This document shows positions 2,203 to 42,502 of a stretch of 47,248 bases of DNA, piece by piece. The translations under genes and the position numbers were made by a program. This DNA is from a virus (lineage: Duplodnaviria; Heunggongvirae; Uroviricota; Caudoviricetes): the IMG/VR virus record IMGVR_UViG_2711768052_000011. One strand, 5' to 3'. Within the stretch, counting starts at the first letter, position 1. Each line of letters begins with the position of its first letter. Under the pieces are notes generated by a model. That model saw nothing but the letters and a program-made list of their open reading frames with translations. It did not search any database and was not told the origin of the DNA.

Positions 2203-3975
2203 CTAATAAACCCGGATAAATAGACCAATCATGATGCCATCAGAACCCACACTCCCCAGCCGTGAGCCCGACAACGCCCGGTATGTCCCCGAAAACGCAC
2301 CGCCTGCATACACAGAAATATCGCTGGTTTGTTGAATCGCGGGGTAGTCTGTTATCCCGACACACTTAAACTCAATAATCATAAGACGTGAGCCGGGATA
2401 CAGGTCACCACGATTTATCTGACGATTTGAATCTGAGCTGTAAGTTCCCTTGTACCCCGCCAGTACAAGACTGCCAATACCGTATCCGTCATATGTCGTT
2501 CCGGGGGTAATCCCGGACAGCGTAGCGACAACGGACGACGGCGTGTATTTCAGGGATTCCCACTCCATCAGTTTGCCAGTGGGCGAGTACCAATTCACAT
2601 GAACGCCACCATTAACACCGTAGAAAATAATATTTTTAGGTTGTTTTTCTGCTTCACCACTGGTATCGGCACTCGTCCAGATGACGTCCACAACACCAAT
2701 AAATAGTTCCCCCTCTATTACGACCCCGTTCTCCGGCCTCGTACTCACGGCATAACGTCCGGGGAGAGCGTTTTTTGCCCACGAGAGGAACATTGACCCT
2801 GACTGAAAATACACTCTGTCTTTGACAGTAAATATTTTCCCGAATCCGGACATGCCGGGGACAGCAAGACGACCGTCTGTGCAGTCGTAAATATCTGCCT
2901 GTGGTTCCATCGTGGCCGCGCTTTTTAGCCCCAGATTATCACGTGACTCCTGTTGTGCTTGTTCACCTGCTGCCGCAATCTCTGACAGATTACCGGACGT
3001 TTTCAGGGTGTTCGTCAGCAGGACATCAATGTCGTTTTTTGCCTGCTCAGCTGCGCGGGCATAACCTGCGGCTACCCGTGCGCTCTGTTCAGATGAGGCC
3101 GCGCTTTCCCCCGCACTTTTCACATCTTCCGCAGTGGCCTTTCTGTCACAGGCTGTGGCCGTTGCATCCTGTCTGGCGTTCTCCGCAAAGCGCTCAGCAT
3201 CATCACGTGCTGCTGCGGTTACCATCACATCCTGTGCGGTCTGCAGTGTGTTTCCTGCAACATTATCGGCGTGACTTTTCGCGTTTTGCGCACTTCGGGC
3301 TGCATTATCAGCGTGACTTTTTGCGCTCTGTTCGCTTCGGGCAGCGTTATCCGCATTGTTTTTTGATTCCTCTGCGCTGGATGCAGAATCATCTGCTGCC
3401 TGTTGAGCCTGCTTTACTGCATCTGTAACACTCTGCACACCCTGTTGCATCTGTCCGGCATTCTGCTCAACTTCTGCAGCCAGATGTTCAACGTGTTGTT
3501 TATCTTCGGCAACCGCGGTGGCGTTCAGCTGTACGTTATCCTCCAGCGTCTGACAGTCTTCCTTTATCTTCTGCGCATCAGCGACATGTTGCCCGGCCTG
3601 TTGTTCGCTTTCCGCTGCGGATTCGGCGCTCTGCTGCGCCTGTGCCACCATTCTCTCAAAGCGTTTCACCACGTCGGGTTTGAGGTCGCCTTCATCGGGA
3701 GCGGTCAGAAAGTCGTTCAGCGTGCCGGGCTTTGCGTCATCGTATACAGCAATGTCGCCAACACAGTACTCGTCGCGCCAGCCCTGTTTCAGATACACGC
3801 GATATTTTCCGGTCCGGGCCTCAAACGAATACTCCCCGTTATTTCCGGTCACCACATCAGCTTCAGTGCGCATCACCACTTCTGATGTGTTCACCCGGGA
3901 TTTCAGAATAATGTGGCATCCGGACATGGGGATGCCTGCGCCATCAGTCAGCGCACCATAAATTAAAACGGACAT
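2203..3975 (-). CDS. side tail fibre protein (Stf-like), second fibre
   Basis: 591 aa from internal Met MSVLIYGALTDGAG (ORF-track frame); conserved phage fibre N-terminal domain (GTLNDFL motif), Ala/Gln-rich shaft, distinct C-terminal domain; followed by tfa. Confidence 0.8.
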   Translation of the reverse strand: MSVLIYGALTDGAGIPMSGCHIILKSRVNTSEVVMRTEADVVTGNNGEYSFEARTGKYRVYLKQGWRDEYCVGDIAVYDDAKPGTLNDFLTAPDEGDLKPDVVKRFERMVAQAQQSAESAAESEQQAGQHVADAQKIKEDCQTLEDNVQLNATAVAEDKQHVEHLAAEVEQNAGQMQQGVQSVTDAVKQAQQAADDSASSAEESKNNADNAARSEQSAKSHADNAARSAQNAKSHADNVAGNTLQTAQDVMVTAAARDDAERFAENARQDATATACDRKATAEDVKSAGESAASSEQSARVAAGYARAAEQAKNDIDVLLTNTLKTSGNLSEIAAAGEQAQQESRDNLGLKSAATMEPQADIYDCTDGRLAVPGMSGFGKIFTVKDRVYFQSGSMFLSWAKNALPGRYAVSTRPENGVVIEGELFIGVVDVIWTSADTSGEAEKQPKNIIFYGVNGGVHVNWYSPTGKLMEWESLKYTPSSVVATLSGITPGTTYDGYGIGSLVLAGYKGTYSSDSNRQINRGDLYPGSRLMIIEFKCVGITDYPAIQQTSDISVYAGGAFSGTYRALSGSRLGSVGSDGIMIGLFIRVY

Positions 3976-30364: not shown

Positions 30365-30631
30365 AAAGGATGTATTTCCAGGTTTTGCTTAATATATGAA
30401 TAATCTCAATGTCATGGTGTTATTTACAACACCAGAATGATGCATCACCGACCCTGCCAGGAAATATAAAATCTCCGCCGAAAATGCACCATTCTGCTGC
30501 CGTAAAAAAATCAGCACTGCGGCTACACCCGACCCCAAATCATAGCCAGAGAACAGAATGTTTTTAACAATCTACCCCCACGTAATAAAAAAATACGTCA
30601 GTGCCGTCACTATAAGGCGTATTTCAAATGT

Positions 30632-30680
<49 letters not shown>

Positions 30681-30833
30681 TGCTCTATCCGGATGAGCTA
30701 GTGACGGTTTTATTGCCACATCCGTAACAACAGTCGACAGGAATAATATACATTCAGAATCAGCCGCCTTAGCTAATTGTGCAACCATCTGCTCTTTGCA
30801 AGTGCACTTAACGTCCTGCGCCACTTTTCAGGC

Positions 30834-30862
30834 ATAAAAAAACCCGCTCAGTGGCGGGATCT
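30834..30862 (-). terminator. intrinsic terminator (candidate tR')
   Basis: Minus strand CCCGC-(6 nt)-GCGGG followed by T8. Confidence 0.55.
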
Positions 30863-30989
30863 TTTGATAAAAACGACAAAGGCACCATTAAGGTGCCTTT
30901 TACACAGGGGCAGCAGGCTTGTCATCACCTCATCGCTACTCCTGGCTTCCTGTTCGGAAGTCTCACAAGTCCCATCAGGGTACAGCGAC

Positions 30990-31018
30990 AGTATCAGCCA
31001 ACACACTATGTGTGTCAA
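30990..31018 (-). promoter_or_regulatory. candidate sigma70 promoter (possible late promoter pR')
   Basis: Minus strand TTGACA, 17-nt spacer containing palindrome ACACACTATGTGTGT, then GATACT. Confidence 0.35.
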
Positions 31019-31053
31019 TATAAATTCATATCGAATTCGATAATCGTTTTCGA

Positions 31054-31455
31054 TTATCGATACAGATAAGCCATCCCTATCCCGTGCAATACCGCCCGTT
31101 TAATATTCTCAAACTCATCTTCCGCAATCATAGGAACAATATAATTTCGTCCCTCCCAGGTTCTGGTTTTTATGCGATCCAGTCGGCTCAATGAAACCGT
31201 CATCAACATGTCACATTTTACCCAGCAAGTAATATGCTCATTACCAGGTATGGGGTTTTCTGATAACTCATGATGGCAATCTCTGCGAGGGAGCGGTTCA
31301 GTAGTGCTTATTGGTACCACTGTTACCAATTGATTGTTGTGCCTGTTTCTGGACACGACCACCACTGGCCTGACCTTGACTATTTCCGGAACAACCATTC
31401 CCCGAAAATCACACATTAAAACAGAACGAACAGACGGCTGATACTTTAATACCAT
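31054..31455 (-). CDS. MazF/PemK-family toxin-like protein (orphan, no adjacent antitoxin)
   Basis: Start MVLKYQPSVRSVLMCDFRGMVVPEIVKVRPVVVVSRN parallels MazF N-terminus (MVSRYVPDMGDLIWVDF...RPAVVLS) by recall; ORF track extends to 31533. Confidence 0.5.
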   Translation of the reverse strand: MVLKYQPSVRSVLMCDFRGMVVPEIVKVRPVVVVSRNRHNNQLVTVVPISTTEPLPRRDCHHELSENPIPGNEHITCWVKCDMLMTVSLSRLDRIKTRTWEGRNYIVPMIAEDEFENIKRAVLHGIGMAYLYR

Positions 31456-31555
31456 AAATCTCTTTGCCTGATAATGACGACTTGTGAACTCCACTACAAA
31501 CAAAATGATTCTGCTGAACAGGCAGTTTCGCACTATACATTATAACCTGTTAAGC

Positions 31556-31585
31556 CAACAAAAAAACCCGCTCGGCGGCGGGATT
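31556..31585 (-). terminator. intrinsic terminator downstream of Q-like gene
   Basis: Minus strand CCCGC-(6 nt)-GCGGG followed by T7; same core as terminator at 30834..30862. Confidence 0.5.
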
Positions 31586-31648
31586 TGCTTACTTTGCCAT
31601 CGAGTACAAAATCGGCAAAATATCAGATTTGCACGAAATATATGCCTT

Positions 31649-32344
31649 TTAATCTACTTTTGCAACACTTTGCTTTGAAAATGCCGTCTTTTGTTCTGAA
31701 CGTGTTCTCATCACAAACAATAAAGCCTCACTATCCAGCCGGTGGAAAATGTGTTTCATTGCAACCCAGTGACCAGTAAATGTTTTGGACCAGTTTTTTG
31801 TTGTTACTCCCGCCAGTAATGCCAGTTCCTGATATTCATAAGTTTCACGCCCAGCTAGCTCACTCTTCACATCCTGTGCCGCCAGCCAGATTAATTTTTT
31901 CAGGCGCTCCCGTGTTTTCTCCGCAATTTTTCTGGTACCAGATTGCGCGTTAAATTCATTCCACGCCCACTGTGTTATCGCAATCTGGTGTTCCCAGCAA
32001 ATGCTGCCGCTGTAACACCACAGCAACCAGGCTTTATAGTGTTCTTCAAGAGACAGAACCGCCCGTCGCCATGATGATGTCGAAAACTCAACCTGACTTA
32101 CCAGAGGAATTGACGTCCTCTTTGCCAGCGATTGTTTCCCCGGGATTGGTGGATTATCCCGCGTTATCATTTTTCCGGTCACTTCATCGCGGTACCGGAT
32201 TTTTTTACGCCTGTAACGCCCTGTATCAAACATGGCATTCTCCTGCCAGGCTTCAAGCTGACCTTTTGTTGCCTCACTCAAATCGGCGGTGGCAATAATG
32301 AGCTGCTCACGAACAAACTGTAAATACTGGTTATTCATGCGCAC
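31649..32344 (-). CDS. putative late antiterminator Q-like protein
   Basis: 231-aa ORF immediately downstream of rusA (10-nt overlap) and upstream of lysis region; sequence not confidently matched. Confidence 0.5.
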   Translation of the reverse strand: MRMNNQYLQFVREQLIIATADLSEATKGQLEAWQENAMFDTGRYRRKKIRYRDEVTGKMITRDNPPIPGKQSLAKRTSIPLVSQVEFSTSSWRRAVLSLEEHYKAWLLWCYSGSICWEHQIAITQWAWNEFNAQSGTRKIAEKTRERLKKLIWLAAQDVKSELAGRETYEYQELALLAGVTTKNWSKTFTGHWVAMKHIFHRLDSEALLFVMRTRSEQKTAFSKQSVAKVD

Positions 32345-34199: not shown

Positions 34200-34355
34200 T
34201 TACTCCTCAGGTTCGTAAGCTGTGAAGACAGCGACCTCCGTCTGGCCGGTTCGGATTCGTACCTCGCAGAGGTCTTTCCTCGTTACCAGTGCCGTCACTA
34301 TGACGGTTAAACAGATGACGATCAGGGCGATTAACATCGCCTTTTGCTGCTTCAT
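34200..34355 (-). CDS. hokD: Hok/Gef-family membrane toxin
   Basis: 51-aa product MKQQKAMLIALIVICLTVIVTALVTRKDLCEVRIRTGQTEVAVFTAYEPEE matches E. coli HokD (RelF) by recall; AAGGAG RBS. Confidence 0.85.
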   Translation of the reverse strand: MKQQKAMLIALIVICLTVIVTALVTRKDLCEVRIRTGQTEVAVFTAYEPEE

Positions 34356-34566
34356 AGCCTGCTTCTCCTTGCCTTTCGGCACGTAAGAGGCTAACCTAGA
34401 TTTGCCGTTCATAGATTGAGCCTCAGATTAATGTTAAGCGTCTTGCAGGACGCGTAATGTTAACTGGGGCTTTTCTCTATCTGCCTTTGGTGTTCATGCC
34501 TGAGACAGATAGCCTCAAGCACCCGCAGCCATTCTACTTAACTCCCGTTACCTCGCCAATATAAAA

Positions 34567-42444: not shown

Positions 42445-42502
42445 TTTCTGGTGACGTTTGGCGGTATCAGTTTTACTCCGTGACTGCTCTGCCGCCCTTT
42501 TT
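42445..42502 (+). ncRNA. dicF: DicF small RNA (cell-division inhibitor sRNA) with intrinsic terminator
   Basis: TTTCTGGTGACGTTTGGCGGTATCAGTTTTACTCCGTGACTGCTCTGCCGCCCTTTTT matches K-12 DicF by recall; GGCGG/CCGCC stem plus T5. Confidence 0.75.

Follow-up and report, generated by a model that had tools for sequence, protein, structure and literature searches.

The minus-strand segment at 31018..30836 of a 47,248-nt Caudoviricetes sequence (the window, by which the whole stretch of DNA analysed is meant) is best explained as a small-RNA gene partnered with the gene for a YifN-type toxin, and not as a Q-utilisation site, a reading to which we assign a probability of roughly 0.7. The MazF-fold gene and the structured RNA, the latter with promoter-like elements, form an obligate syntenic pair, and 30983..30870 is very likely a conserved structured RNA gene in its own right, linked to yifN, and not the late promoter. 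Over 30600..31700 the window shares 100% identity with prophages of E. coli EC21Z-048 and GPEC79-13-647, and 99.9% with that of SE11; the minus-strand order is RusA, Q, pR′, terminator T1, the yifN-like gene, the small-RNA gene, a tRNA-Gly-like remnant, a TerB-like gene, holin and M15 endolysin. The features of the module and of its downstream flank are as follows.

31054..31455, minus strand: YifN-type PemK/MazF-fold gene, 133 aa, putative endoribonuclease toxin (Pfam PF02452, E 5.6e-14)
31037..31060, minus strand: perfect 10-bp inverted repeat, TCGATAATCG-AAAA-CGATTATCGA (read from the sequence)
31018..30990, minus strand: candidate small-RNA promoter, TTGACA-17-GATACT (promoter scan and conservation)
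30983..30870, minus strand: structured small RNA of ~114 nt, with the tail UUUGUCGUUUU (covariance-model hit, covariation and folding)
30900..30878, minus strand: P4 hairpin of the small RNA, AAAGGCACC-UUAAU-GGUGCCUUU, a 9-bp stem followed by GUCGUUUUUA (terminator scan)
30858..30836 (stem 30858..30843), minus strand: terminator T2, CCCGCCACUGAGCGGG + U7 (terminator scan)
30643..30700, minus strand: tRNA-Gly(UCC)-like remnant lacking the 5′ acceptor strand (Rfam tRNA, 48.5 bits, model positions 8–63)

Across the candidate site the minus strand reads tatatTTGACAcacatagtgtgttggctGATACTgtcgctGTACCCTGATGGGACTTGTGAGACTTCCGAACAGGAAGCCAGGAGTAGCGATGAGGTGATGACAAGCCTGCTGCCCCTGTGTAAAAGGCACCTTAATGGTGCCTTTGTCGTTTTTATCAAAAGATCCCGCCACTGAGCGGGTTTTTTTATG. 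A first-pass annotation of this DNA had pointed here to a TTGACA, a 17-nt spacer containing a palindrome and a GATACT, all of which lie on the minus strand where it placed them (-35 at 31018..31013, -10 at 30995..30990, spacer 17 nt). The site matches the sigma70 consensus at 10/12 positions and ranks first in a 3-kb scan; as 10/12 sites occur in the whole window at the rate expected by chance (6 observed, 6.4 ± 2.7 expected), comparative evidence must carry the promoter argument, and its weight derives from conservation, the motif alone being no proof. With a -10 hexamer defined by A at position 2, T at position 6 and 4–5/6 matches to TATAAT, 25 of 30 diverse homologues have such a hexamer at -12..-7, exactly 6 nt ahead of the first conserved G, accompanied by TTG-type -35 elements ~17 nt further upstream that often fall within the end of the toxin ORF; enterobacterial homologues share promoters of the form TTGACA/T-16 to 18-(A/G/T)A(T/G)A(C/A)(T/A). 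This fixed -10 geometry, maintained across phyla, is the main argument for a primary transcript that would begin at ~30983. The 15-nt palindrome ACACACATAGTGTGT within the spacer region (31015..31001, minus strand) was considered as an operator and rejected, being confined to the E. coli lineage and missing from the promoters of loci L012, L019, L117, L121, L123, L125 and L129. The 10-bp inverted repeat spans the yifN stop codon, its loop being flipped in L023 and one of its arms deleted in L016.

A covariance model (R1) built from 30 diverse sequences yields a single hit in the window, at 30983..30870 (102 bits, E 1.5e-22). With G30983 numbered +1, P0 pairs positions 4–6 with 11–13 and is separated by the conserved segment GACUUGUGAGAC from hairpin P2 (24–28 with 34–38), which is followed by AGCC; the long-range helix P3 joins 40–49 with 70–79, carries in its loop the near-invariant GGUGAUGACAAGCC (GGYGAUGACAAGCC in consensus form) and is followed by CUGUGAA; and P4 (84–92 with 98–106) leads into the tail UUUGUCNUUU (UUUGUCGUUUU in the feature list). 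P4 corresponds to a second hairpin that the first-pass annotation had described inside its putative leader, and is probably the small RNA's own intrinsic terminator; nearly all homologues have a hairpin at this position, with differing sequence. The strong terminator of the same annotation is likewise real (30858..30843 plus U7 by terminator scan) and constitutes T2, the back-up terminator behind the small RNA. T2 nearly copies T1 in sequence, its position in other lineages holds a different terminator sequence or none, and blastn against 50,697 phage records matched the terminator alone, in Stx2c phages.

The window RNA folds with a minimum free energy of -43.9 kcal/mol (fold z = -4.7). Two alignments were scored, an independent MAFFT alignment and a 66-sequence model-guided alignment, the latter leaning towards the modelled helices. 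In the MAFFT alignment 83.4% of cells are paired, compared with 75.6% after shuffling and 37–55% in slid controls, and P2 and P3 are both supported; in the model-guided alignment the corresponding values are 92.9%, 79.7% and 38–56%, with 17 pairs changing on both sides, covariation at 9/9 pairs of P3 and 4/5 of P2, and a covariation score of 0.426 (0.175 shuffled) that none of 500 shuffles reaches. A pseudoknot, P1 (14–19 with 62–67), may form between part of the P3 loop and the 5′ GACUUGU; it would cross P3 and is absent from the covariance model. P1 is 82–87% paired and nearly invariant, one pair showing a GC/AU exchange. GAUGACAA could instead pair with the UUGUC tail at the 3′ end (GACAA/UUGUC), an alternative that is 91% paired and equally invariant, and since the bases of both pairings hardly vary, covariation gives no choice between them. 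A 25-aa ORF inside the RNA (MTSLLPL...) was rejected as coding because indels shift its frame between copies. Scans of the window RNA and 12 diverse loci against Rfam 15 gave no family match at the gathering score, only sub-threshold matches to generic hairpins; in all, the Rfam scans covered the window, its local region and 13 related loci. Searches of the non-subscription literature found no description of a yifN-linked RNA or of its conserved sequences.

The 133-aa product of the neighbouring gene carries the RefSeq label PemK/MazF family toxin and the COG-style name ‘YifN (PemK superfamily)’, and its PHROGs matches comprise one family of unknown function and a ‘MazF-like growth inhibitor’. 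Its AlphaFold model (pLDDT 90.6) was used as the Foldseek query, for which the best matches are MazF structures of S. aureus, B. subtilis, M. tuberculosis and E. coli (probability 1.0, TM 0.66–0.81). In an hhalign comparison the invariant R29 and S50 of YifN align with R29 and T52 of MazF, catalytic residues of the E. coli enzyme; the predicted model thus has a MazF fold in which the catalytic Arg and Ser/Thr positions are kept. Searches of PDB sequences with the protein and its profile returned no matches, and PADLOC has no model for the YifN-type protein. A conserved upstream ORF that might encode a protein antitoxin was found at none of 27 diverse loci, where the neighbours are unrelated genes; upstream of yifN the window has pR′ and T1 only.

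The association of gene and RNA extends well beyond the enterobacteria. A profile scan covering one genome per species confirmed at least 568 YifN relatives within the first 600 candidate stretches, and 80 of the loci were examined (toxin homologues 43–58% identical), their sources including Pseudomonas, Caulobacterales, Burkholderiales, Neisseria, Pasteurellaceae and a Cytophagales MAG. At 77 of the 80, R1 finds exactly one hit, on the toxin strand and just 3′ of the toxin gene, with scores of 35–110 bits; many of these are hits in Pseudomonas species closely related to one another, which leaves fewer than 77 independent observations, yet several classes are spanned. Every enterobacterial locus is matched as well, and the model gives no hit in two Q82-type phages without yifN. 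As to the remaining loci, the contig of L096 stops 107 nt past the toxin gene, and in L106 and L116 weak matches (11–12 bits, E ~0.04–0.06) immediately precede the toxin gene, that of L106 carrying GCGAUAACAAGCC and that of L116 a more diverged GGCGAAGCAAGCUCC.

The genomic settings of the module are varied. It stands beside a lambda-type Q in L012 and L117 and beside a Q21-type Q in L019, L123, L125 and L126, and it follows Mu Mor in L118. L127 has it on a Rep3/MobA plasmid and L128 in an integrative element, the copies of L121 and L122 occupy chromosomal sites unrelated to phages, and other metagenomic contigs carry it too. By host, the Xenorhabdus and Arsenophonus modules come with a Q21-type Q (PF06530), those of Enterobacter with a lambda-type Q and once after Mu GemA/Mor/gp27, and that of Atlantibacter is chromosomal and non-phage. 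Searching viral contigs for the core GGACTTGTGAGACTTCCG recovered the divergent copies L011, L012 and L019, an earlier contig pattern search with a fixed 16-nt spacing having given no matches; these copies hold together a ~72% identical toxin, a TTGACT-17-AATACT promoter and the RNA body, the last with compensatory-looking changes.

Loci in which the pair is broken are informative in one direction. The E. coli prophages L002 and L003 have the same Q, pR′ and T1 without the toxin gene and rejoin the window at 31010, within the promoter spacer, and therefore lack the -35. That the yifN segment (31507..31011, 497 bp, with CAT microhomology flanks) is an insertion that created a hybrid promoter was considered and dropped because divergent relatives keep gene, promoter and RNA together; it is more likely that L002-type loci arose by deletion. 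In L004, which has a lambda-type Q (PF03589), a lambda-like pR′ (TTGATT-16-TGgTAAATT, then AACGATGGG, as in lambda itself) runs into the RNA body from 30980 on, and in three E. coli prophages of the L004 type the RNA body and terminator lie ~60 nt past the lambda-type pR′, at the 6S/tR′ position. RNA-only loci (L002, L004 and L005 types) occur in at least 12 E. coli genomes, whereas loci with the toxin alone are rare at most; an antitoxin would be expected to show this asymmetry. In K-12, a yifN pseudogene is followed by TTGACA-17-GATAAT and a truncated RNA (16.4 bits), a case of joint decay.

That the RNA is the antitoxin of the YifN-type toxin is put forward tentatively, at a little under even odds; the lack of a protein antitoxin, the RNA-only loci and the joint decay in K-12 are all consistent with such a role. 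The proposal, held with the same reserve, would have the YifN branch controlled by a dedicated, single-copy, pseudoknotted RNA of ~110–130 nt that has its own promoter, with no protein antitoxin involved. The sigma70 promoter TTGACA-17-GATACT would start a transcript near G30983, which would fold into P0, P2 and a long P3 displaying the GGYGAUGACAAGCC loop and end either at P4 (~114 nt) or at the back-up T2 (~148 nt). The RNA would then restrain or neutralise the MazF-like endoribonuclease, probably by direct binding, with the single-stranded GAUGACAAG perhaps offered to the toxin as a pseudo-substrate; GAUGACAAG contains ACA, the cleavage motif of E. coli MazF. Together yifN and the RNA would make up a mobile two-part module, a moron in the late operon between the tR′ (T1) and the lysis genes, in which Q-modified polymerase would transcribe the toxin strongly late in infection and the RNA would be made constitutively. 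The start site and 3′ ends of the RNA, the toxicity of the protein and its neutralisation are all predictions made from sequence. The RNA persists without the toxin in L002, L004 and L005, and in L004 it is embedded in the lambda-type pR′ leader, which suggests that it may also act independently of the toxin, as a leader or terminator.

Among known systems, the yifN–RNA module is by analogy most like type III toxin–antitoxin systems (ToxIN, CptIN and TenpIN), resembling them in logic and differing in architecture. In both, an endoribonuclease of Kid/MazF-related fold (putative for YifN) is paired with a structured non-coding RNA in place of a protein antitoxin, an RNA that forms a pseudoknot in type III systems and may do so in the yifN module, and both are mobile, type III systems often being phage- or plasmid-borne. 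Type III antitoxins, however, consist of tandem 34–36-nt repeats that lie upstream, are co-transcribed with the toxin through a terminator and are processed by the toxin, whereas the yifN module has a single ~114-nt RNA, usually downstream and with its own promoter, no tandem repeats being found within 30700..31700; the toxin, moreover, belongs to the Pfam PemK/MazF family and not to ToxN/AbiQ. With the type II systems MazEF, PemIK and Kid–Kis the module has in common its toxin fold and the positions of the catalytic Arg and Ser/Thr, but no MazE, PemI or other conserved protein gene adjoins yifN, whose conserved neighbour is instead an RNA. Type I systems (tisB/istR-1, zorO/orzO and shoB/ohsC) offer the parallel of a small RNA promoted separately or divergently beside a toxin gene and, in some lineages, of 9–12 nt complementary to the toxin leader; unlike the small membrane peptides of type I, the yifN product is predicted to be a 133-aa soluble protein of RNase fold.

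The likeness to type I systems raises the alternative that the RNA is a trans-acting antisense repressor pairing with the yifN mRNA leader, which we regard as unlikely. Because RNAduplex over full lengths proved uninformative, the longest stretch of complementarity was used as the test. The window has 9 nt of perfect complementarity between GACUUGUGA of the RNA and UCACAAGUC of the leader at -32 (a length reached by 1% of shuffles), and L117, L012 and L019 have 11–12 nt between GGUGAUGACAA and UUGUCAUCACC at -25 (0–0.3% of shuffles), in each case involving the most conserved segments of the RNA; in all, leader complementarity is seen at four of seven enterobacterial loci (E. coli, Enterobacter and Klebsiella-type, 9–12 nt). 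The Atlantibacter and Xenorhabdus loci, by contrast, show complementarity not above chance, and at 55 distinct loci of other lineages the longest complement is mostly 6 nt, about the shuffle mean, so that pairing with the leader is not conserved across the family. The paired segment of the RNA is, furthermore, not the same in the window and in Enterobacter, and an elaborate conserved fold would be unusual for a plain antisense RNA. Antisense pairing is at most a lineage-specific extra layer.

It is improbable that the RNA is no separate gene but a structured 3′ UTR and terminator on the yifN mRNA that stabilises the message or insulates the moron, with the promoter hexamers incidental, even though the covariance-model hits lie directly 3′ of yifN on the same strand, the RNA ends in terminator hairpins and late read-through transcripts would include it in any case. 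A -10 element at a fixed 6-nt distance in 25 of 30 homologues, accompanied by good -35 elements, would hardly be expected unless transcription starts there; L106 and perhaps L116 have an RNA-like element upstream of the gene; the RNA survives without yifN at the E. coli RNA-only loci; and terminators have no need of ~60 nt of covarying helices or of an invariant 11-nt loop.

The first-pass annotation had read the site as a lambdoid pR′ with a 6S-like leader and tR′, at which Q drives read-through into the lysis genes. Of this, the sigma70 promoter making a short, structured, terminated transcript is retained, and the late promoter or qut site acted on by Q is not, such a function now being very improbable. 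The architecture does invite the comparison: a promoter, ~110–150 nt and a strong terminator resemble the lambda pR′/6S/tR′ arrangement, in which likewise a constitutive sigma70 promoter ahead of the lysis genes yields a short terminated RNA; in L004-type prophages a lambda-type pR′ leader does contain the RNA body and terminator; and T2 resembles in sequence both T1 and the tR′ of phage 434. A complete Q82-type promoter, pause and terminator unit, however, already adjoins Q and co-varies with Q type, its elements being the following.

31649..32344, minus strand: Q antiterminator of the phage-82 type, 231 aa (Pfam PF06323, E 6.6e-93)
31606..31665, minus strand: probable pR′ and Q82-type pause region (promoter scan and conservation)
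31560..31582 (stem 31582..31567), minus strand: terminator T1, the tR′ of the Q82-type unit, CCCGCCGCCGAGCGGG + U7 (terminator scan)

In a tblastn comparison the window Q shares 77% identity with its phage 82 counterpart and 73% with that of phage 434. The Q-proximal promoter, TTGCAA-17-TATATT, overlaps the Q stop codon (-35 at 31665..31660, -10 at 31642..31637), and its predicted +1 is A31630, seven nt past the -10. It is followed by the extended -10-like TGaTATTTT at 31625..31617 (+6..+14, with TG at +6/+7 and TATTTT at +9..+14), by GCC at 31616..31614 (+15..+17) and then by an AT-rich stretch, the pause being predicted at +25 (31606). This spacing agrees with the published layout of the phage 82 pR′, in which an extended -10-like pause element is combined with GCC at +15–17 and a pause at +25 (PMC5001585). 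At the position homologous to T1 a terminator is annotated in phage 434, and the ~100 nt past Q are kept with the Q82-type Q in L002, phage 434 and vB_EcoS-689R5. As far as can be judged from sequence, with the start site and pause of pR′ both predicted, 31665..31560 is probably the real late unit of this prophage, ~650 bases upstream of the candidate promoter, and its pR′–T1 transcript would be ~70 nt long (31630..31560). A start immediately past Q had been named beforehand in the first-pass annotation as counting against its reading, and it is there that this predicted unit sits; in the comparison with phage 82 that it had called for, the Q-proximal leader fits the pR′ layout and the candidate leader does not. 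With a Q82-type unit directly 3′ of Q, the reported promoter is very unlikely to be Q's cognate late promoter, and this prophage's late promoter is relocated accordingly.

The candidate site itself departs from a pR′ unit in further respects. Its -35 lies 631 nt past the Q stop codon, with the yifN-like gene intervening, and its +1..+26 (GUACCCUGAUGGGACUUGUGAGACUU) contain no conserved -10-like pause element; TACCCT (+2..+7) was considered as a lambda-like pause element and rejected, since it forms the stem of P0 and other lineages have TTCCCG instead. Of the four features that define pR′–qut–tR′, a short transcript with an intrinsic terminator is present (P4 with its U-rich tail, and T2), and the other three, adjacency to Q, a pause element and co-variation with Q, fail. 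The promoter and RNA are instead kept with yifN beside three unrelated Q families (PF06323, PF03589 and PF06530) and at sites without any Q, outside phages as well as within them, and because they track yifN across Q types the promoter belongs to the toxin–RNA module and not to Q.

Lambdoid prophages encode further small RNAs close to their late regulatory region, StxS and DicF among them, that are produced in lysogens. StxS is a terminated pR′ transcript, of which the analogue in the window would be the ~70-nt pR′–T1 RNA and not the yifN-linked RNA, which differs from StxS and DicF in its own promoter, its toxin partner and the absence of any sequence or Rfam similarity. DicF is also present in the window.

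A chance promoter match ahead of ordinary terminators, with no specific function, is barely credible, for although 10/12 sigma70 matches occur at the chance rate in the window and terminator-like hairpins are common in the region, it is contradicted by 35–110-bit hits beside yifN at 77 of 80 distant loci and by strong covariation.

As a matter of routine, annotations class proteins of the YifN type (‘PemK/MazF family toxins’) as type II despite their having no adjacent antitoxin gene, a missing partner to which the structured RNA beside nearly every yifN copy, with its own promoter, gives a concrete and testable answer. If the antitoxin proposal is true, the module would be a large and phylogenetically broad addition to the very small set of systems that pair a protein toxin with an RNA antitoxin, and would represent a previously unrecognised, widespread class of RNA antitoxin carried by phages as a late-operon moron. 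The RNA would in addition be a new family for annotation, Rfam 15 having none, and the yifN–RNA module recurs in the Q-to-lysis interval of lambdoid and Mu-like prophages. A putative RNase placed under Q-dependent late read-through, with its RNA made constitutively, would be relevant to host shut-off or to abortive-infection defence.

The tRNA-Gly-like remnant downstream, at which ARAGORN finds no tRNA, is outside the module; relatives have intact tRNAs at its position, and it marks the usual tRNA slot of the late region.

The yifN-RNA module (a YifN-type MazF-fold putative toxin gene, usually followed directly by the conserved structured small RNA) is not confined to lambdoid prophages. In an Enterobacter genome (L118 1..4100), the module and the tRNA genes that follow it are preceded by the Mu-like genes for GemA, Mor and gp27 and succeeded by those for holin and lysozyme; the downstream part is identical to that of the lambda-type-Q prophage L117. 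Lambdoid and Mu-like phages have swapped the module plus lysis cassette.

Copies and RNA-like elements at other loci are:
L132 14906..15030 (NC_000913.3, about 3959905..3960029), minus strand: promoter-like hexamers and truncated RNA copy after a yifN pseudogene, E. coli K-12 MG1655
L005 2300..2340 and 2490..2599: extra P4-like hairpin and orphan RNA copy, E. coli A34
L116 1860..1990 and L106 1860..1945: divergent, shorter RNA-like elements, Pseudomonas sp. B22129 and Alysiella crassa

Directly 3′ of the K-12 pseudogene lies TTGACA-17-GATAAT, with the shortened RNA copy beginning ∼33 nt beyond it and retaining helix P0, GGGACCUGCGAAGCC and a hairpin/terminator; the covariance model scores this copy at 16.4 bits with 64 model positions absent, and the K-12 toxin gene and RNA seem to have decayed jointly. 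The orphan copy of E. coli A34 is 80% identical, its neighbours being a ParDE pair on one side and a Panacea-domain gene on the other. The locus has neither yifN nor a good promoter, and the P4-like hairpin alone (GGTACCGTAATGGTGCCTTTGTCAT) is duplicated 190 nt upstream of the RNA copy. At the two distant loci the RNA-like element stands 5′ of the toxin gene rather than 3′, carrying GCGAUAACAAGCC (L106) or the more diverged GGCGAAGCAAGCUCC (L116), each followed by a terminator. Their order resembles the RNA-then-toxin arrangement of type III systems, but the covariance model matches are weak (11–12 bits).

Within the prophage, the toxin gene is bordered by the following minus-strand features:
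31560..31582: terminator T1, after the probable Q82-type late promoter pR', CCCGCCGCCGAGCGGG followed by T7
31539..31544: perfect TATAAT, 16 nt beyond the T1 U-run, with the yifN start codon 84 nt further on
31474..31482 and about 31464..31473 (also L117 2476..2487): toxin-leader segments complementary to the RNA
31037..31060: perfect 10-bp inverted repeat, TCGATAATCG-AAAA-CGATTATCGA, across the yifN stop codon
30836..30858: terminator T2, the back-up after the RNA, CCCGCCACTGAGCGGG followed by T7

In E. coli and Enterobacter/Klebsiella copies, 9–12 nt of the toxin mRNA leader are complementary to the RNA at its two most conserved segments, GACUUGUGA and GGUGAUGACAA; leaders of lineages beyond these lack such complementarity. 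The TATAAT, for which no recognisable −35 element was found, could serve as a weak promoter of the toxin gene's own in the lysogen. The loop of the stop-codon repeat is flipped to TTTT in one copy (L023), and the loop and one arm are deleted in another (L016), variants suggestive of hairpin-mediated rearrangement. T1 and T2 are near copies of one another, and T2 with its adjoining ATGCC is also similar to phage 434 tR' and, in Atlantibacter, to the module's second terminator. These likenesses could reflect common ancestry or a joint where modules recombined.

Further RNA features of the prophage are:
30643..30700, minus strand: tRNA-Gly(UCC)-like remnant, matching tRNA model positions 8–63 only
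34350..34524, minus strand: sok antitoxin RNA (Rfam, 110 bits)
42446..42497, plus strand: DicF small RNA (Rfam, 76.7 bits)

The tRNA-like remnant has an unpaired 5′ acceptor strand and was not called as a tRNA by ARAGORN; related prophages hold intact clusters (Met/Thr/Gly, Thr/Gly or Ile/Arg) at the same slot. Given the sok and DicF matches, the prophage carries at least two more regulatory RNAs, with hokD annotated in SE11 at the place homologous to the sok RNA.
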